DNA of 15,233 bases from a bacterium (GCA_002716355.1 PBAU01000015.1:1-15233); one strand, 5' to 3'; positions 57-12,117 are shown, counted from the stretch's first letter. Made by a program: numbers and translations. The notes: generated from the sequence alone by a model not told the origin.

Positions 57-872
57 ATGGATCTGGCAACCATAATCGGATTAATTAGTGGAACAGCATT
101 AATTCTATTTTCAATGTTTTTAGAAGCAACAAAAAGCAGTATATCTATGTTGAAATTTTGGAGCCCATCAAGTATTATGATTGTTTTAGGTGGAACATTA
201 GCAGCAACATCAGTTGCTTTTAGATTAAAAGAGGTGGCGCGTGTTATTTCTATTATTAAATATGCATTTATTAAGCCTAAGTTTGTGCTGCATGAATTAG
301 TACAAGCTATTATTGAGTTAGCAGAGGCTAATCGTAAAGGACCTGCAGAATTAGAAAAAGAAATTCCAAACATTAAATATCCATTTTTACAAGATGGAGT
401 GCAATTTATTACTCAAGGAATCAAGCTAGATGAGTTGCGAGAAATTTTAGAAGAAAGAGAAGCTTTTAGATATAAAAGAGAATTACACGAATCTGAACTT
501 ATGAAAACAATGGGAATTTATGCACCAGCATTTGGTATGGTTGGAACTTTAATTGGTTTGGTGATTATGTTGTTTGGTATGGGTGGCAACGATAGTGGCG
601 GCGGAGGCGCAGGAGGCATTGGAAGCATTGGTCCAGCTATGGGTGTTGCATTAATTACAACCTTTTATGGGGCTATTTTAGCTAATTTAATTTTTAATCC
701 TTTTGCAGAAAAAATTAAATCTCGTAATAAAGAAAACGTACAAGCTTTTAAAATTATTATTGAAGGTGTTTGCATGCTACATCAAAAGAAACATTACTTT
801 GATGTAAAAGATAAATTAACTTCTTATATCCCAACCGAAGACCGTTTAAAATATTTTAAAGATGATGAATAA
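57..872 (+). CDS. motA: Flagellar-type stator channel protein, MotA/PomA family (271 aa)
   Basis: AAGGAG Shine-Dalgarno at 46-51, 5 nt before the ATG. Four-TM layout with a large cytoplasmic loop between TM2 and TM3. TM3/TM4 signature PAFGMVGTLIGL...IGPAMGVALITTFYGAILANLIFNPFAEKI closely matches my recollection of PomA/MotA (conserved Pro in TM3, NPF in TM4). The cytoplasmic loop keeps a basic pair followed by acidic residues (ANRKGPAELEKE). Size is typical of flagellar stators, not ZorA. Confidence 0.9.
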   Translation: MDLATIIGLISGTALILFSMFLEATKSSISMLKFWSPSSIMIVLGGTLAATSVAFRLKEVARVISIIKYAFIKPKFVLHELVQAIIELAEANRKGPAELEKEIPNIKYPFLQDGVQFITQGIKLDELREILEEREAFRYKRELHESELMKTMGIYAPAFGMVGTLIGLVIMLFGMGGNDSGGGGAGGIGSIGPAMGVALITTFYGAILANLIFNPFAEKIKSRNKENVQAFKIIIEGVCMLHQKKHYFDVKDKLTSYIPTEDRLKYFKDDE

Positions 873-1578
873 ACAAGAATTAGACCAATTTGAAGATGAA
901 ATAAGAGGGAGTATTAAAGAAGAGCAGTCATGGATGATGACATATGCAGACATGATGACACTTTTATTTGCTTTTTTTGTTCTTCTTTTTTCTATGTCAA
1001 CAATAGATCCAGTAAAAATATCCCAACTTATGGATGGAATGGGAGATCAACCAGAATTAAAATCATTTAATGAGATAACCAAAGAGTTTGAAGACATATT
1101 AGAAGAACTAAATATTGAGAATCAAGCAAAAGTTTCTAGGGATCCAAGAGGCGTTACATTAGAAATTGATGGAGATATTTGTTTTGAATCAGCAAGCACT
1201 CAGCTACATGAAACATTAATCCGAGTATTAGATTTAGCCGCAAAGAAAGTATTAAGTCAGGCAGATGATCCAAGACTGATTACTGTAGAGGGGCATACTG
1301 ATGCAGATCAAATTCCAAAGGAATTAAGAAAGTTTTTTCCAACAAATTGGGAATTATCTGCTGCAAGAGCTTCAAAAGTTGTAAATTATTTGATTGATAT
1401 TGGTGTAAATTCTGGTAAATTACAGGCATCTGGATATGCCGATAGATGGCCTGCAAGTTTATCTTGGTATGATGTTCGAAGCGGTAAAGTCAATAATGCT
1501 GTTATTGCAGAAAATAATAAAACCGAGGAACAAAAAAAAATAAATCGCAGAATCAAAATTGTTTTTAGTAAAAATTAA
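862..1578 (+). CDS. motB: Stator anchor protein MotB/PomB family with OmpA-like peptidoglycan-binding domain (238 aa)
   Basis: Overlaps the motA stop by 11 nt (ATGATGAATAA), suggesting translational coupling. Single TM with the invariant ion-binding Asp in YADMMTLLFAFFVLLFSMS (Asp30, nt 949-951). OmpA-like motifs GHTD...NWELSAARA...GYADRWP...NRRIKIVF. Confidence 0.9.
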   Translation: MMNKQELDQFEDEIRGSIKEEQSWMMTYADMMTLLFAFFVLLFSMSTIDPVKISQLMDGMGDQPELKSFNEITKEFEDILEELNIENQAKVSRDPRGVTLEIDGDICFESASTQLHETLIRVLDLAAKKVLSQADDPRLITVEGHTDADQIPKELRKFFPTNWELSAARASKVVNYLIDIGVNSGKLQASGYADRWPASLSWYDVRSGKVNNAVIAENNKTEEQKKINRRIKIVFSKN

Positions 1579-1595
1579 ACTTATTGGGAGAATGA

Positions 1596-2903
1596 ATGAA
1601 CCAAAAATTTAAAACAATTATAAATAAAACATTCTTTGTATGTTTGTTTTTGAGTATTGCTCTAATGCAAAATGCAGAATTAATAACCCAAAAAATTAAT
1701 GTAGAAAATGCTATTAGAGATAAAGTGAATGTAACATTAAATAAATTATTAGATCAATCACAGTATGTAATTATCGTGAATGCAAGAATGGATGTTAAGG
1801 CATTTTCAATGAATGATAATTCTACATCTAGTCAGCAGCAAACTAGAAACTATTATAGTCCTATCCCTGGTTTACTACCAACAGTACCACAGAATATTAA
1901 AAAATCAACAGGAACAACTTATCAGTATTCTTCTGATAAATATTTATTATATGGCTTAGATATTGCAATTTATTTAGACGAATCAACAGCAACAGGTTCA
2001 ATGAAACAAAACATTATTCGTTTAGTAAATGATGCAATTCCAGAATTAGTTGATTGTGAAGATTGTATACGATTTGAAACTATGAGCATGAATAACTCAA
2101 CCAGTTCAAGCTATCAAGATTTATTAAATAGAATTGAAACATTAGAACAAGAAAGAAGAGATGCCGAAGCTCAATTGATTAATTGGAAGTTTGACCAATT
2201 AGAAAGTCAGTTACTTATTGCGCAACAAAGAGAAAGATCTCGAGAAATTGCAGATTCGGCGAGATTGGCTAATTTACAAAAAATTGAATTAGAATATAGA
2301 AAAAAACAAGATTCTTTATATGTTTTAACATCAATCAATTTAAATGAAGCAATTAAAGGAAGAATTCAATCTGAATCAGATTTAAATGATAAATTAATTG
2401 ATATTATTAAAAGCGGTATGGACTCCAATGCAGATAGCGATATTATTGGAGGAGGTACTGATTCAGATATTGATAGGTCTAAATCAAATAATGCAGGATT
2501 ATTAATGTGGATTGGCTTTGCAGTTATTGTCTTGTTATTAGGTACATTAATATTAATGGTTATGAAAAATAAACAGCCAGTTTATTTAAAGCCTAAAAAT
2601 TCAAATAAACAGCCCGAATCTTCTGGTTCAGAATCTAATCAAAAACAAAATTTTGATGCCACTCAATCAACAGTTGTACCACCAACTCAAACTACAAGTT
2701 CTGATTCTTTAGATTTAACAGCAACTAGCGCAAATGAAGATGGAGATGTGATGAGATCAGAATTAAAGTCTTTACGTCAATCTGCTGTAGCAATGAGCGT
2801 AAGTCAGAAAGATGGAGCAAATCAAATTGTAAAAGATTGGTTAGATAGTTCTAATGAAGATGGAAATAGTTCAGATGAACAATCTGATGATAAGAAGAGT
2901 TAA
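1596..2903 (+). CDS. Two-TM membrane protein, candidate shortened/divergent FliF (MS-ring)-like protein (435 aa)
   Basis: GGGAG RBS upstream of the ATG. N-terminal hydrophobic segment (FFVCLFLSIALM). About 280 aa predicted periplasmic region with helix-strand-strand stretches resembling YscJ/FliF ring-building motifs (VENAIRDKVNVTLNKLLDQSQYVIIVNARMDV; LYGLDIAIYLDES...KQNIIRLVNDAIPELVDCEDCIRFETM). Heptad-like coiled-coil stretch (about residues 170-260). Second TM LLMWIGFAVIVLLLGTLILMVM (nt 2499-2564). About 110-aa Ser/Thr/Asp-rich cytoplasmic tail ending in an amphipathic segment with Trp (ANQIVKDWLDSSNED), like the FliG-binding C-terminus of FliF. Lies immediately upstream of fliG, as fliF normally does. 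The CDS is confident; the family assignment is tentative. Confidence 0.45.
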   Translation: MNQKFKTIINKTFFVCLFLSIALMQNAELITQKINVENAIRDKVNVTLNKLLDQSQYVIIVNARMDVKAFSMNDNSTSSQQQTRNYYSPIPGLLPTVPQNIKKSTGTTYQYSSDKYLLYGLDIAIYLDESTATGSMKQNIIRLVNDAIPELVDCEDCIRFETMSMNNSTSSSYQDLLNRIETLEQERRDAEAQLINWKFDQLESQLLIAQQRERSREIADSARLANLQKIELEYRKKQDSLYVLTSINLNEAIKGRIQSESDLNDKLIDIIKSGMDSNADSDIIGGGTDSDIDRSKSNNAGLLMWIGFAVIVLLLGTLILMVMKNKQPVYLKPKNSNKQPESSGSESNQKQNFDATQSTVVPPTQTTSSDSLDLTATSANEDGDVMRSELKSLRQSAVAMSVSQKDGANQIVKDWLDSSNEDGNSSDEQSDDKKS

Positions 2904-2929
2904 TATATTATAAGGATAAAATAATTATT

Positions 2930-3865
2930 ATGGGAAATGATTTAATAGATACTTTAGCAGGATTAGATAAATCAGCAATTTTATTTCAAGTTTTAGGTGA
3001 GTCTTTAGCCTTAACTATGTTTCAAAGTTTATCTGAGAGCGAAGTTTTAAAAATTAGAGTACGCTCTAAAGAGTTGAAAAATATTCCTTTTGATATTAAG
3101 CAGGCAGTTCTTGAAGAATTTTATTTCAAGATGATGACTCAAAAATATAGACAAGTAAGCAAGTCAAATAAGCTGTTTTCTTTTTTAGATGAATTAAATG
3201 ATGAACAAATATTTTATTTAACTAATACTGAATCTGCAAAAGTTATAGCCCTAACTCTTGATCAGCTATCAGAAGAAAGAAAAATAAAAATTCTTAATCG
3301 TTTTAATGCAAGCATTAAACATAATATTATTATTGAATTTGCCCAACTAAATGAAATTCCCCTAGAAGGTGTTGTGAATATTGCGCATGAATTAAAAAAG
3401 AAAATATCTTTTATACCCGGACCAAAGGAATTTAGTAGAGGAGGAGCACAAAGTATTGCTGCTTTACTGAATCAAATGAGCATTGAAGAATCAGAACAAT
3501 ATTTAAGCCAAATTGAACAAGATGATCCAGAACTTTATTCTAAAGTAAAAAAATACTTTTTATCTTTTGAGGATTTGTTAGATATGCCTGATCATTTAAT
3601 GCAAATATTTTGGAAAAATCCTGATGCAACAGATGTAGATACATTAGCTCAAGCATTAAAAGGCTTTGATCAAGACGTTGTTGATAGGATATTGTCATAT
3701 TTGCCTACAAGAAAACAAAAAATGTATACACCTATCACAACACCATTATCAAAGCGAGATGCAGAAGGCGCACAACAATCTATTATGAAAGTCGCAAAAG
3801 AAATGTCTAAAAACAAAGAATTAAACCTTGATGATATTTTATCAGAAACAGAAATGATAGATTAG
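2930..3865 (+). CDS. fliG: Flagellar motor switch/rotor protein FliG family, all three domains present (311 aa)
   Basis: Collinear similarity to remembered FliG sequences. N domain: LAGLDKSAILFQVLGESLALTMFQSLSESEV...VLEEFY. Middle domain: NTESAKVIALTL in place of the EHPQ-TIAL motif. GGAQSIAALLNQM and DDPELYSKVKKYFLSFEDL match the GG linker and MFxF-EDL motif. C domain: LAQALKGF...TRKQ...RDAEGAQQSIMKV. Length is typical for FliG. Confidence 0.85.
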   Translation: MGNDLIDTLAGLDKSAILFQVLGESLALTMFQSLSESEVLKIRVRSKELKNIPFDIKQAVLEEFYFKMMTQKYRQVSKSNKLFSFLDELNDEQIFYLTNTESAKVIALTLDQLSEERKIKILNRFNASIKHNIIIEFAQLNEIPLEGVVNIAHELKKKISFIPGPKEFSRGGAQSIAALLNQMSIEESEQYLSQIEQDDPELYSKVKKYFLSFEDLLDMPDHLMQIFWKNPDATDVDTLAQALKGFDQDVVDRILSYLPTRKQKMYTPITTPLSKRDAEGAQQSIMKVAKEMSKNKELNLDDILSETEMID

Positions 3866-3957: not shown

Positions 3958-5478
3958 TTATCCTAAAATCATATTAATCATGGCAACGACATCTAAAACA
4001 TTTATAACACCATCTTCATTTAAATCTGAGCAAGCATTATAATTATCTTCACAGTCAGCACACAGTATAATATTAATTGTTAGAACGACATCTAGAACAT
4101 TTAATACTCCATCTGCATTTGCATCCCCATATAATTGACCACATTCATCGCCAGATCCACCAAGATCTAAGTCTAGGGTTACAAATTGTCCACTACCATC
4201 GCTAAATATAAATTCGGCAGCATTACCACCACCAATTGTTGCGCTAAATGTTACACCTTCTTCATATGCATGTCCATCAGGCGTCATAATAAAAACCATA
4301 TCTTCTACCATAACTTCATGAGCTGTTGCTAAATTATTTTCAGCATCTGTATATAAAACAGAAACTATACCTGTTTCAGTATCATATGTTGGGTTTGTAA
4401 GAGAGGGTAAAGAGTTGTCATTTTGCGATTGAGTAGACATAACCAATACCCCAAGATCTGACGTATCTAAAATATTAGTTGAAATATCTAAACCACTAAG
4501 GCCCGCCTCAACTGTAGTACCAACTAAAGCAACCCCATTTAAGGAATTAGGCCAAACTCCCCAATCAGCATCATTAGTAATAATTGATAGTAAAGATGAA
4601 GCTTGAAAATTATTACCAGCAGTTGAATAACTAAAATTCTCACTTAAAACCTCAAATCCTCCAACTTCTCCTGTTGTTAAATCACCATCAATTTTATAAA
4701 TTGCAGGATAAAGCTGACCAAAACCGCCATCACCCCAAGCATATGCATAGGCAACAGGGTTTTCAGCCTCTGGATTTACTATTGCAATAGAATATAAATT
4801 CCATGGTCCAAAAAAAGACCCAGAATCACAGCAAGATCCAGATAATCCTAATGAAGCAAATAATTTATCATCACTATATGTTGCTTTTATATTAACTATA
4901 TCTTGGCTAGCACTAGTTTCTCCAGATTCATCAGTTACTAATGTAGTATATAAATTATTTGCTGGAGGCCATTGGTTATTTTCATTATATGGAGATTGTG
5001 AAACGGTAATTTGACCAAAATCAAGCCCAAGGGAGTTAGAATCAATAGAACCTTGTAAGTACCAATCAACATTATCGCCACCATTTGTTGTAGTTGTTGC
5101 GCCCCATGTACTTTCATATCCCTCTTCATTTATAGGATTTACATTTGAATTTTCTATCCAGCTTTGTTGATTATCAGTAGAAACAAAAACACTTGCAGAT
5201 GTACTTTCAGCTTGTATTAGCGAATCTGATAAATCTGCATGAGTTGTAAAGTTAACTGCTGGAGCTGAAGAACATAAATTTTCTAATAATTCTTCTCTAA
5301 CATTTGGCATAACTTGGTTAACTGCATTTTTTGCAACCATTGCTCGCTCCCAAATAAGTTGAGCGGCTTCCTTATGAATTTGTTCCCATTGTTGAGCAGT
5401 GGGCTGTTGATAATTATTATTAAAACCCAGCGAGCTTAAAATCCATAAAAAACTAAAAATTTTCATACATGTATACAT
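3958..5478 (-). CDS. Secreted protein of unknown function with C-terminal tandem dockerin-type (EF-hand-like Ca-binding) repeats (506 aa)
   Basis: GAGGT RBS 7 nt upstream of the ATG at 5478. Signal-peptide-like N-terminus (MKIFSFLWILSSLGF). C-terminus has two copies of a D-x-N-x-D-G-V-[LI]-N-V-L-D-V-V motif (GDANADGVLNVLDVVLTINIIL and SDLNEDGVINVLDVVAMINMILG; nt 3961-4128), matching the type I dockerin duplicated-segment pattern. I do not recognise the remaining ~440 aa (Gly/Ser/Thr/Asn-rich, probably beta-rich). Confidence 0.8.
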   Translation of the reverse strand: MYTCMKIFSFLWILSSLGFNNNYQQPTAQQWEQIHKEAAQLIWERAMVAKNAVNQVMPNVREELLENLCSSAPAVNFTTHADLSDSLIQAESTSASVFVSTDNQQSWIENSNVNPINEEGYESTWGATTTTNGGDNVDWYLQGSIDSNSLGLDFGQITVSQSPYNENNQWPPANNLYTTLVTDESGETSASQDIVNIKATYSDDKLFASLGLSGSCCDSGSFFGPWNLYSIAIVNPEAENPVAYAYAWGDGGFGQLYPAIYKIDGDLTTGEVGGFEVLSENFSYSTAGNNFQASSLLSIITNDADWGVWPNSLNGVALVGTTVEAGLSGLDISTNILDTSDLGVLVMSTQSQNDNSLPSLTNPTYDTETGIVSVLYTDAENNLATAHEVMVEDMVFIMTPDGHAYEEGVTFSATIGGGNAAEFIFSDGSGQFVTLDLDLGGSGDECGQLYGDANADGVLNVLDVVLTINIILCADCEDNYNACSDLNEDGVINVLDVVAMINMILG

Positions 5479-8223: not shown

Positions 8224-8394
8224 ATTAATCCAGTAATATTACACTAAATTCAATGTATTAATATATTTGAAAATTATGATATAACTCTACAATGAAATTA
8301 TTTGTATAAACTTGGTAGGATTTGATTGTAATTACACCATAATTACATTAACTTATTATTGACACTACATTAATAAATTAACAAAACATCTAAT

Positions 8395-8790
8395 ATGAAA
8401 ATAGAAAGAATGAATAAAGGAAGCTGGGGAAAAGTAAGAGCTTTTTTTGATTTAACGACTCAAGAAGGTTTTACTATTAAAGGTTTTAAAATTATAGAAG
8501 GGATTAATGGTTTGTTTGTTAGCATGCCAAGCCAAAAAGGTAATGATGAAGAATACTATGATACAATTTGGGTAGATTCTAAGCAATTGAGAGAAGATTT
8601 AAATGAATTAGCAATAAATCAATATAATCAATCTTCTAGCGATACATTATCACCGCCAACTTCAAATGAAAATTCAAGTGAAATGAATAGCACTCCTTCA
8701 ACAGGAGATAATTTATCAGATAATCAACCTGTTGAATCAGAAACTACTGCAGATACTCCAGCATTTTCTGATGATGATATTCCTTTTTAA
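8395..8790 (+). CDS. spoVG: SpoVG-family nucleic-acid-binding protein with a disordered acidic C-terminal extension ending in an SSB-like DDDIPF tip (131 aa)
   Basis: Residues 1-79 align with remembered SpoVG (GKVRAFFDLT...FTIKGFKIIEGINGLFVSMPSQK...EYYDTI...LREDLNELAINQY versus B. subtilis GRMRAIASIT...[23 protein letters not shown]...EFRDI...). Residues 80-131 are Ser/Thr/Asn/Pro/Asp/Glu-rich with no basic residue, and the last six codons (8770-8787) encode DDDIPF. No obvious Shine-Dalgarno. Confidence 0.85.
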   Translation: MKIERMNKGSWGKVRAFFDLTTQEGFTIKGFKIIEGINGLFVSMPSQKGNDEEYYDTIWVDSKQLREDLNELAINQYNQSSSDTLSPPTSNENSSEMNSTPSTGDNLSDNQPVESETTADTPAFSDDDIPF

Positions 8791-8802
8791 GATATATAAA
8801 GT

Positions 8803-9471
8803 ATGATGCAATTTTTATTTTCTTCTATAGGTAAAAAAATTCAGGTTGCTATCTCAGGTATTTTTTTATGTATTTTTTTAGTTTTTCATTTACTGAATAA
8901 TATCACATTGTTTTTTGGTCCAGCTGTATTTAATGCTATGGTTCATTTTTTAGAGAGTATTAAACCAATGATTAGAATTATGGAATTTGGTTTGTTATTT
9001 ATTCTCATCATGCATATAGGCAATGCTATAAAATTAACAATAGAAAATAAAGCTGCAAATCCTGTTAATTATAAACAATCACAATCTAACGATGTGAGCT
9101 CTTTAAATTCTCGGACTATGCTAATATCAGGCACTATAATCTTATTGTTTATTATTTTACATCTCAGCTATATATGGCTTAGCTATCAAACACACAATCC
9201 TAATAATCATAGTGAAACTTATTATGATATTTTGTTAAGAAACAAAATTGGGTTTTTAGGGCACAAATGGACGGCTTTATTTTATGTAATTGCCATTAGT
9301 ATTATTGCATTTCATTTACGCCATGGTTTTCAATCTGCATTAAAAACTTTGGGTTTTCTTCCTAATTCAAAAAATAATTTTTTATATAAAATTGCCTTTA
9401 TTTTTTGGGGAATAATACCTTTTGGTTTTATTGTTATTGTTTTATCAATTCAATTTGGAATTATTAATTAA
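8803..9471 (+). CDS. sdhC: Succinate dehydrogenase/fumarate reductase cytochrome b subunit (b558-type, five TM helices) (222 aa)
   Basis: N-terminal [13 protein letters not shown] motif typical of Bacillus/Bacteroides-type SdhC/FrdC. Five hydrophobic helices with conserved His in FHLLNN, MHIGNA, LHLSYIW and FHLRHGF, consistent with bis-His ligation of two haems. Directly precedes sdhA and sdhB. Confidence 0.85.
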
Positions 9472-9472
9472 T

Positions 9473-11383
9473 ATGAAATCACTGGATTCTAAAATACCCA
9501 ATGGAGATTTAGTTAGTAAATGGTCTCAGCACAAATTTAATTTAAATTTAGTTAATCCATCGAATAAAAAAAAATATACAGTGATTGTAGTTGGGACTGG
9601 TTTAGCTGGTGCATCCGCAGCTGCAACAATGGCAGAATTAGGATATAATGTTTTAGCTTTTTCATATCATGAATCACCGCGTAGAGCTCATAGCATTGCA
9701 GCACAAGGTGGAATTAATGCTGCTAAAAATTATCAAAATGATGGAGATAGTGTTTTTAGATTATTTTATGATACTATTAAAGGAGGCGATTATCGATCAA
9801 GGGAAGCCAATGTTTATCGTTTAGCAGAATTAAGTAGCAATATTATTGATCAATGTGCAGCACAGGGAGTTCCATTTGCTCGTGAATATGGAGGACACTT
9901 AGCAAATCGTTCATTTGGCGGAGCGCAAGTTTCTCGTACATTTTATGCTAGAGGACAAACAGGACAACAGCTACTTTTAGGAGCATATTCTGCCTTAATT
10001 AGGCAAATGAATTTAAAAACAGTCAAATTTTTTCCTAGACATGAAATGTTAGATTTGGTTACCATTGATGGGCATGCAAAAGGAATTATCGCAAGAAATT
10101 TATTAACGGGAGACATACAATCCTATCCAGCAAATGCAGTTGTATTAGCAACAGGAGGGTATGGAAATGTTTTTTACTTATCTACAAATGCGATGGCAAG
10201 CAATGTAACAGCTTCATGGCGTGCACATAAAAAAGGAGCATTATTTGCTAATCCTTGCTTTACACAAATTCATCCAACCTGCATACCTGTGAGTAGTAAT
10301 CATCAATCTAAATTAACATTAATGAGTGAAAGCTTAAGAAATGATGGGCGTGTATGGGTGCCAAAGAAAAAAAATGATTTAAGAGATCCCAATCAAATAT
10401 CAGAAGAAGAAAGAGATTATTATTTAGAACGACTTTATCCTTCTTTTGGGAATTTAGTCCCTAGAGATGTTGCATCTAGGAGAGCAAAAGAAATGTGTGA
10501 TAACGGCTTTGGTGTTGGCAATACAAGGTTAGCTGTATATCTAGACTTTAAAGATGTTATCGCCAAACAAGGTAAAAACTGGGTTGCTGAAAAATATGGT
10601 AATCTTTTTGATATGTATCATCAAATCACTGGAGAAAGTCCCTATGAAAAACCCATGATGATATATCCGGCAGTACACTATACTATGGGAGGATTATGGG
10701 TTGATTATAATTTAATGAGTAATATTCCAGGATTATATGTAACAGGTGAAGCAAATTTTTCAGATCATGGAGCAAATAGATTAGGAGCCAGTGCATTAAT
10801 GCAAGGTTTAGCTGATGGATATTTTATTTTGCCTTATACTATAGGAGATTATTTAGCTAAAGAATCATCAGCTTTAAATAGCACACATGAAGAGTATCAA
10901 AATGGAGTGCAATTTTGTAATGAACAAATTAAAAATATGCTTTCTATTAAAGGTAATAAAACTGTTGATGATTTACATAAAGAATTAGGAAAGATTATGT
11001 GGGATTATGTAGGCATGTCTAGAAATAAAAGCAATTTAGAGTTAGCCTTGAAACAGATTCCATCTATTAGAGAAGATTTTTGGAATAATGTTAATATTCC
11101 TGGAACTGGCAAAGAATTTAACCCAGAATTAGAAAAAGCAGGTCGCTTAGCAGATTTTATTGAGCTAGGGGAATTAATGGCAAAAGATGCGCTAAATAGA
11201 GAAGAATCGTGTGGCGGCCATTTTAGAGAAGAACATCAAACAGATGACAATGAAGCAAAAAGAAACGACGAAAATTATTCGTTTGTAGCTGCATGGGAAT
11301 ATGTTAAAGAAAAAGAATCAATTATGCATAAGGAACAATTAATATTTGAAAATGTAAAACTGGCAACCAGGAGCTATAAATAA
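9473..11383 (+). CDS. sdhA: Succinate dehydrogenase/fumarate reductase flavoprotein subunit (636 aa from the ATG at 9473)
   Basis: FAD dinucleotide fold [21 protein letters not shown]. Covalent-FAD histidine motif [15 protein letters not shown]. Active-site region [10 protein letters not shown] and [19 protein letters not shown] prefer the ATG at 9473 (MKSLDSKIP..., 1 nt after the sdhC stop) to the TTG at 9422 in the ORF track, which would overlap sdhC by 50 nt. Confidence 0.95.
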
Positions 11384-12117
11384 TGCAACTTACTTTAAAA
11401 ATTTGGAGGCAATCATCAGCAGAATCAACAGGATTTTTTGAAAAATATATAGTTGATAATGTAACTGCAGACATGTCCTTTTTTGAAATGCTTGATATGC
11501 TAAACAATGATTTAATTAAACAGAATAAATCTCCTATTGTTTTTGACCATGATTGTAGAGAGGGTATATGTGGAACATGTGGTTTGGTAATAAATGGTAG
11601 AGCTCACGGCCCTTTAAAAGGAGTTACTGCTTGTCAATTACATATGAGAACATTTAAAAATGGTGAAACCCTAACTGTAGAACCATGGAGAGCAAAGAGC
11701 TTCAAAGTAATTAAAGATTTAGCAGTTGATAGACAGGCATTTGATAAAATTATGGAAGCAGGAGGATATATTTCAGTTAAAACTGGAGGTGCTCCTGATG
11801 CAAATGCCATGCCTATTTTTAAAGAAAATGCAGATGAAGCATTTGATTCAGCTACTTGTATAGGATGTGGAGCATGTGTTGCTGCATGTAAAAACTCATC
11901 AGCGATGCTATTTGTAGGCGCAAAAGTTAATCAATATGCCCAATTACCTCAAGGACAAGTCGAACACTCTAAAAGAGTGAAAAATATGGTAGAAGCAATG
12001 GATAGTGCAGGATTTGGTAATTGTACAAATACTGGTGCATGTGAAGCGGAATGTCCTAAAGAAATTTCTATTAGTAATATTATTAAATTGAATAAAGAAT
12101 ATTTAAAATTTCATTAA
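11383..12117 (+). CDS. sdhB: Succinate dehydrogenase/fumarate reductase iron-sulfur subunit (244 aa)
   Basis: TAATG stop/start overlap with sdhA. AGGAG RBS at 11369-11373. Three Cys clusters: [10 protein letters not shown] (2Fe-2S), [11 protein letters not shown] (4Fe-4S), [12 protein letters not shown] (3Fe-4S). Confidence 0.95.

Follow-up and report, generated by a model that had tools for sequence, protein, structure and literature searches.

An SSB-type C-terminal tip on a SpoVG-fold protein of the marine phylum SAR406 and on its phage-borne relatives

The 15,233-nucleotide (nt) stretch PBAU01000015.1:1-15233 of the bacterial genome GCA_002716355.1, which was analysed over its whole length and is here called the window, carries at 8395..8790 on the plus strand a complete gene for a protein of 131 amino acids (aa). 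In this protein a SpoVG fold is followed by a disordered acidic linker and by a C-terminal tip of the type found on the single-stranded DNA-binding proteins of bacteria (SSBs). We consider it probable that this protein acts as an SSB-style adaptor in which a SpoVG fold takes the place of the oligonucleotide/oligosaccharide-binding (OB) fold and which would dock proteins that otherwise partner SSB. Both modules are already known, while their combination is new: an earlier note on this DNA had supposed that the arrangement was undescribed for SpoVG, and full-text literature searches indeed found no previous description of a SpoVG with an SSB-type tip.

Translation and a Pfam scan confirmed what had been read from the DNA, namely the open reading frame (ORF) with its 131-aa product and TAA stop codon (8788-8790), a SpoVG domain of ~79 aa, the composition of the 52-aa tail behind it and the final D-D-D-I-P-F, encoded at 8770-8787. 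The core (aa 1-79, 8395..8631) matches the SpoVG family PF04026 over aa 2-79 with an E-value of 1e-15 and 58.1 bits, the gathering cut-off being 29.6. With the NCBIfam SpoVG equivalog NF009749 the protein reaches 50.2 bits, below the cut-off of 108; by this measure it is a divergent member of the SpoVG subfamily and no equivalog of the Firmicute septation regulator SpoVG. An AlphaFold2 model based on a 39-sequence alignment shows six strands and a helix running to about aa 85, with a predicted local distance difference test score (pLDDT) of ~90 for aa 1-83 and of less than 50 for aa 84-121. When this model was compared with the PDB using Foldseek, all ten significant matches were SpoVG crystal structures (2I9Z, 2IA9 and 2I9X), with template-modelling (TM) scores of 0.70-0.82, root-mean-square deviations of 1.5-3.6 Å and identities of 25-30%, and no OB-fold structure was among them. 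The SSB family PF00436 did not match the window protein in the Pfam scan, and the ssb model TIGR00621 gave a weak match confined to the tail (13.8 bits against a cut-off of 53.95, E-value 0.053).

Domain and fold are shared with the canonical SpoVG proteins of Bacillus subtilis, Staphylococcus epidermidis, Borrelia and Listeria (2IA9, 2I9Z) at the same 25-30% identity. The canonical proteins differ in how they end, since the chains in the crystal structures comprise 84-99 residues and the B. subtilis protein closes with ...EFEEAGAS, without -IPF. Their genomic context also differs, both from the phage recombination modules in which the phage forms are found and from the PPDK/sdhCAB surroundings of the SAR406 genes.

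The 52-aa tail (8632-8787) contains 11 Asp or Glu residues and no Lys, Arg or His, which gives it a net charge of -11, and Lys and Arg are almost absent from the linkers across the homologues. Its first 42 residues (aa 80-121, 8632..8757) form an acidic linker rich in Ser, Glu, Thr, Asn and Pro, for which the low pLDDT, the column entropy and the alignments indicate disorder. The last ten residues (aa 122-131, 8758..8787) form the extended conserved tip P-A-F-S-D-D-D-I-P-F. Its hexapeptide corresponds residue for residue to the DDDIPF end of Escherichia coli SSB, and the Phe at position -8 (F124) has a counterpart in the E. coli sequence ...MDFDDDIPF.

This order of parts is that of the bacterial SSBs (PF00436/TIGR00621), in which a nucleic-acid-binding core, a disordered linker and an acidic C-terminal tip likewise follow each other; for the window protein, nucleic-acid binding by the core is assumed by analogy. 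The 42-aa linker is in the size range of that of E. coli SSB, given as 56 aa, and both kinds of protein combine a hypervariable linker with an invariant tip. They differ in the fold of the core, which is an OB fold in SSB and a SpoVG fold here, and in their assembly, as SSB is a tetramer whereas the window protein is probably a dimer, to judge from SpoVG crystal structures. SSB linkers are rich in Gly, Gln and Pro rather than in Ser, Glu, Thr, Asn and Pro, and the coating of single-stranded DNA (ssDNA), which SSB performs, is only putative for the window protein.

A total of 1534 homologues was found, and 10 contigs of several sources encode exactly this protein. Among the 120 listed homologues of these 1534 (55-100% identical, 103-149 aa long), core and tail stand in one frame in every case and every protein ends with [DE][DES]D[IL]PF, as DDDIPF in 86, EDDIPF in 19, DEDIPF in 7, DDDLPF in 5 and DSDIPF in 3 of them. 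In 112 of 112 homologues of full length, four residues of the tip never change, namely F(-8), D(-4), P(-2) and F(-1), corresponding to F124, D128, P130 and F131. Averaged over columns, the entropy amounts to 0.53 bits for the core and 0.69 bits for the ten C-terminal residues, against 2.55 bits for the linker. The tails of these proteins vary in length between 43 and 70 aa and their linkers are unalignable. A second short motif, G-[DENS]-N-[ILMV], recurs within the linker of 95 of the 112 close homologues (G-D-N-L in the window protein, aa 104-107, 8704..8715), and it is not present in the distant SAR406 clades or in the phage forms. The strictly conserved end can be written as F-x-[DE][DES][DE]-[IL]-P-F. 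As judged from these alignments, strong purifying selection acts on the tip while the linker is left to drift, and such a drifting spacer with a frozen end is typical of a short docking motif that is carried by a disordered tether. The match of the tip is not a matter of chance, because, in the cellular loci and the first phage loci, such an end was seen on the SpoVG genes and on no other ORF of 40 aa or more. The SSB-like layout on a fold other than the OB fold, which the earlier note had proposed, is thus borne out by the AlphaFold model, by Foldseek and by the conservation pattern of tip and linker.

The same note had described the tail for this one protein and suggested a survey of other SpoVG proteins for similar tips. 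The core alone (80 aa) was used as a query against 1.84 billion cluster representatives, so that the tail was unable to bias the outcome. The tip proved to be widespread: a single complete core is present in 74 of the listed representatives, and 39 of these end in -PF, 29 of them with an acidic-hydrophobic-Pro-Phe sequence, and about ten of the 35 without a -PF end are obvious frameshift debris. In an alignment of 26 such proteins with 32-56% identity, only four columns do not vary, two within the core and those of the final Pro-Phe, and the shortest tip-bearing tail noted has a length of 8 aa (P0256). Rather than being peculiar to one protein, the SSB-type tip is, on the sequences compared, characteristic of a large and mostly phage-borne SpoVG subfamily. 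In the PHROG database the phage SpoVG forms match only phrog_27338, which is labelled 'unknown function', and they matched no PHROG annotated as an ssDNA-binding protein. A GC-rich phage version, sought in E. coli genomes so as to pair a phage with a host of known SSB tip, gave no match.

Of nine lineages that were sampled outside SAR406, eight lie on phage contigs. Here the tip-bearing SpoVG genes occupy replication and recombination modules, the usual site of phage ssb genes, and have ERF/Sak annealases, RusA, NinG, PD-(D/E)XK nucleases and replicative helicases as neighbours. The gene for P0248 (...DDELPF) overlaps the ERF stop by 4 nt, with helicase, methylase, primase-helicase and RusA genes following, and that for P0298 (...EDDDIPF) belongs to a block that includes ERF, Gp157, HNH and a DnaB-type helicase. 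P0152 (...TSDDIPF) is encoded a short distance upstream of PDDEXK_14 and ERF, P0149 (...NDDIPF) has a Sak-type annealase (SSAP_Sak) upstream, and RusA lies immediately downstream of P0311 (...PDSDIPF). On a 31-kb contig from a Tara viral-size fraction that also carries terminase and portal genes, the gene for P0165 (...TEDDIPF) is flanked by PDDEXK_1/DUF1599 and by NinG, a methylase and PDDEXK_5; P0316 (...DEGIPF) shares its contig with a methylase and a terminase. Among IMG/VR viral contigs, which were retrieved with single-protein queries, four of six bear the tip (L022-L025). The tip is also found in cultured phages, as the 'putative SpoVG protein' of the phi29-like podophages phiCP7R, CPS2 and cpx of Clostridium perfringens ends with ...EPV[GS]DGDIPF. 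The complete genome of phiCP7R (L016) has its SpoVG gene at 16629-16940, near the right terminal repeat; a protein-primed polymerase is present in its annotation, from which an SSB and equivalents of phi29 p5/p6 are absent. In these podophages the tip-bearing SpoVG is the only recognisable small nucleic-acid-binding protein. The ninth lineage, P0250 (...EENEEELPF), adjoins an RVT_1 reverse transcriptase, a PIF1-type helicase, a restriction-endonuclease-like protein and an SNF2 helicase, and its region (L030 844-9149) may represent an island of mobile or defence genes and not a phage.

Because tip-bearing SpoVGs are common phage genes at the usual ssb sites, a link of the window protein to the SSB interactome is supported by this comparison. 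The DDDIPF hexapeptide of SSB is described as the docking site of many genome-maintenance proteins, and phage RecT annealases specifically recognise the 7 C-terminal residues of SSB. In phage HK620 ssb adjoins sak4, and the last six SSB residues are described as required for the stimulation of annealing. A phage OB-fold SSB-like protein ending in FDDDIPF has been linked to ExoI, and an interference with ExoI was proposed for it. The SpoVG family for its part binds RNA, ssDNA and double-stranded DNA, its single-strand binding being loosely sequence-dependent; binding of RNA or DNA is known for the proteins of Borrelia, Listeria and Staphylococcus. The known phage SSBs (HK620 SSB; Bas52_0087; PHROG 378/DUF669, 18154 and 7364) resemble the tip-bearing SpoVGs in being small, in being encoded within replication and recombination modules, frequently with an annealase gene as neighbour, and in carrying an SSB-type acidic tip that is read by partner proteins. 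None of these families has the SpoVG fold, however, and they are phage genes, whereas the gene in the window is fixed in the chromosome of a bacterial phylum.

Scanning metagenomes for DNA that encodes DDDIPF followed by a stop codon yielded 80 ORFs (loci L032-L111), comprising 44 OB-fold SSBs from diverse metagenomic lineages, 5 SAR406 SpoVG-tail genes and 31 others. Several of these 31 match PHROG phage ssDNA-binding families (phrog_378/DUF669, 18154 and 7364), and phages therefore put the host tip on several scaffolds; matches to PHROGs of unknown function (24909, 37570 and 18187) occur as well. Some DDDIPF-ending ORFs match no family, for example those of L041/L094 (98 aa), L046 (94 aa) and L096 (255 aa). 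Further unrecognised scaffolds bearing the SSB tip may exist.

On the cellular side, a scan of species-representative genomes with a single-protein query returned 8 loci. The seven genomes that have the gene belong to Candidatus Neomarinimicrobiota (SAR406) or are marine metagenome-assembled genomes (MAGs), and their proteins end in SEDDIPF, SDDDIPF, NEDEIPF, TEDEIPF, GDDEIPF or EDEEIPF. One MAG that is labelled Ignavibacteriae encodes a homologue of the plain SpoVG kind, 86 aa long, without the tail and without shared synteny. In all 12 cellular loci, the seven genomes together with five metagenomic loci, the gene order is PPDK (divergent), SpoVG-tail gene, sdhC, sdhA, sdhB, and because of this shared order the SpoVG-tail gene is a stable chromosomal gene of SAR406. 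In the window, sdhC, sdhA and sdhB were recognised at 8803..12117 on the plus strand by Sdh_cyt, FAD_binding_2/Succ_DH_flav_C and Fer2_3. The distance between the SpoVG-tail stop and sdhC is 12 nt here and 3-33 nt in all 12 loci; as the spacing is always this short and no terminator was found between 8790 and 8803, the gene is probably co-transcribed with sdhCAB. The divergent intergenic region between PPDK (minus strand) and the SpoVG-tail gene (plus strand), 8224..8394, is the presumed promoter region, and this arrangement is kept in 12/12 loci. A sigma-70 scan gave no more sites than were obtained in shuffles, and no promoter was assigned. A stem-loop at 8693-8707, one of four weak terminator-like matches with 1.7 expected in shuffles, lies inside the ORF, and Rfam had no match anywhere in the window.

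The core of the window protein is 61-66% identical to several marine-phage versions. A neighbour-joining tree (79 columns, without support values), used only qualitatively for the clustering of SAR406 among marine-phage forms, places SAR406 as one cluster among the tip-bearing forms of marine phages, with tip-bearing and tip-less sequences interspersed. A separate observation concerns dockerin-like segments in large phage proteins (L022 15776-19198, minus strand; L017 1-3116), which are 38-41% identical to aa 400-506 of a dockerin protein encoded in the window (3958-5478); this similarity is a weak hint that the two marine phages may infect SAR406.

If the window protein and its relatives act as adaptors, the SpoVG core, presumably as a dimer, would sit on single-stranded nucleic acid, and the flexible tails would offer their free -IPF carboxy-terminus to pockets that accept the SSB tip. 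Candidate pockets are those of ExoI, RecQ, RecJ, RecO, PriA, chi and RNase HI, and in phages those of ERF/Sak/RecT annealases. SSB-partner enzymes would thereby be brought to the substrates bound by SpoVG, and the role would be recruitment rather than competition. In phages the tip-bearing SpoVG would most likely stand in for SSB as a surrogate encoded by the phage itself, in both recombination and replication. The SAR406 copy, which is close to the marine-phage forms, is fixed in the chromosome and would serve as an additional hub beside the normal SSB.

Several observations weigh against this adaptor role. The SpoVG proteins characterised so far are regulators and not SSBs, and the computed net charge of the core is -2, so that a strong polyanion binder is not obvious. 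Adjacency to recombination genes or single-strand annealing proteins is found for the phage homologues and not for the window gene, which lies between PPDK and sdhCAB and has no DNA-metabolism genes beside it. The phage contexts, moreover, stem from homologues that are 40-66% identical in the core, that is, from proteins other than the window protein. No OB-fold SSB was found among 909 ORFs in 240 kb of phage loci, of which ±10 kb were visible, nor in the precomputed Pfam lists. This lack is a weak sign of replacement, because of the limited range visible and because tip-less phage SpoVGs (L020, L021) are likewise without a nearby OB-fold SSB. As regards the SSB of SAR406 itself, no ssb gene was present within the SAR406 loci examined. 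Three of the 44 metagenomic ssb loci, picked by tetranucleotide similarity as candidates for SAR406 (L051, L110 and L111), were rejected, since their SSBs belong to SAR86-like Gammaproteobacteria; the pick failed because composition does not separate AT-rich marine lineages.

The tip could also act as a decoy or competitor, occupying the pockets of SSB partners and drawing these enzymes off SSB without recruiting them to SpoVG-bound nucleic acid. In phages this would serve host takeover or the protection of DNA ends from ExoI/RecJ, and in SAR406 the regulation of repair and replication factors. The conservation of the tip would be explained equally well by a decoy as by an adaptor, most lineages are of phage origin, and the tip-bearing phage protein proposed to interfere with ExoI provides a precedent. 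Nevertheless we regard a decoy as unlikely, as the conserved SpoVG nucleic-acid-binding core, with its 0.53 bits per column, would be superfluous for a pure decoy, and the tight coupling with ERF/Sak genes suggests cooperation over inhibition.

Another explanation starts from the acidity of the tail, which might fold onto the nucleic-acid surface of SpoVG as a mimic and so tune its affinity and specificity, the likeness to the SSB tip then being convergent. In Hfq, too, a small RNA-binding core is joined to a disordered acidic tail, although Hfq is not known to have an -IPF carboxy-terminal docking motif. Its acidic C-terminal domain is described as a nucleic-acid mimic that acts within its own protein (PMC5606850) and is a precedent for such autoregulation. 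The net charge of -11 and the nearly Lys/Arg-free linkers fit this explanation, and the SSB tip itself is described as contacting its own OB fold. Mere acidity, however, requires neither an invariant terminal Pro-Phe nor a hexapeptide identical to that of SSB; the tip is kept even on the 8-aa tail of P0256, for which a fold-back would be sterically limited, and the core is not net basic. Autoregulation as the whole explanation therefore has little probability in our view, while an autoregulatory tail and the adaptor role are compatible and not mutually exclusive.

Docking of the tip to some partner that does not belong to the SSB interactome appears highly improbable. Such a partner could be a cell-division protein, approached by mimicry of the FtsZ C-terminal peptide D-I-P-x-F-L, which DIPF partly resembles, or a tail-specific protease of the PDZ type, which recognises hydrophobic C-termini. 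SpoVG is annotated as a septation regulator, and an S41 peptidase gene lies 5.5 kb downstream of the SpoVG-tail gene. The match to the SSB end is exact and involves the final residues of the chain, whereas in FtsZ the motif is internal and requires a Leu behind it; the genes around the phage forms serve recombination and replication, with no division genes among them, and the window protein has no signal peptide for reaching periplasmic PDZ proteases. A sequencing or assembly frameshift, raised as a possible artefact in the earlier note, or a functionless chance match deserves practically no credence, and the tail is genuine, given the identical protein on 10 contigs of independent source and the retention of frame and tip in 120/120 homologues and 12/12 syntenic loci.

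Two further features of the SAR406 loci were noted. The longest sdhA ORF of the window begins with a TTG at 9422 and overlaps sdhC by 50 nt; the start is more likely the ATG at 9470 (MKSLDSK...), which overlaps the sdhC stop by 2 nt. At 57-3865 the window carries a cluster of MotA, MotB, a 435-aa Ser-Thr-acidic membrane protein and FliG, which is also present in L002, L004 and L054 and is conserved across SAR406 loci. No further flagellar genes were visible in the SAR406 stretches examined, and the cluster looks like a stand-alone stator and FliG module.

Beyond the adaptor role of the single protein, we tentatively raise the possibility that SpoVG-fold tip proteins form an unrecognised class of non-OB single-strand-binding hubs, which in phages would be the SSB partner of ERF/Sak annealases and of the replication machinery and in SAR406 a second hub. 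If this is true, the SAR406 hub would link SpoVG-bound RNA or ssDNA with the SSB interactome (RNase HI, RecQ, RecJ, PriA, RecO and chi), possibly under co-expression with succinate dehydrogenase, and the SpoVG family, which is poorly understood, would have had the binding of single-stranded nucleic acids as its ancestral role. The C-terminal tip of SSB is a central address label of bacterial genome maintenance and has so far been considered mainly on OB-fold SSBs; with it, SpoVG, whose mechanism has been debated for decades, gains a concrete and testable molecular connection. The phage forms are likely a new family of phage SSB surrogates, at present filed under 'unknown function' in PHROGs, and are of relevance for recombineering because the portability of annealases depends on the match of the SSB tip. 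In the abundant and uncultured ocean phylum SAR406, the gene means that a second protein is kept which potentially addresses the SSB interactome.
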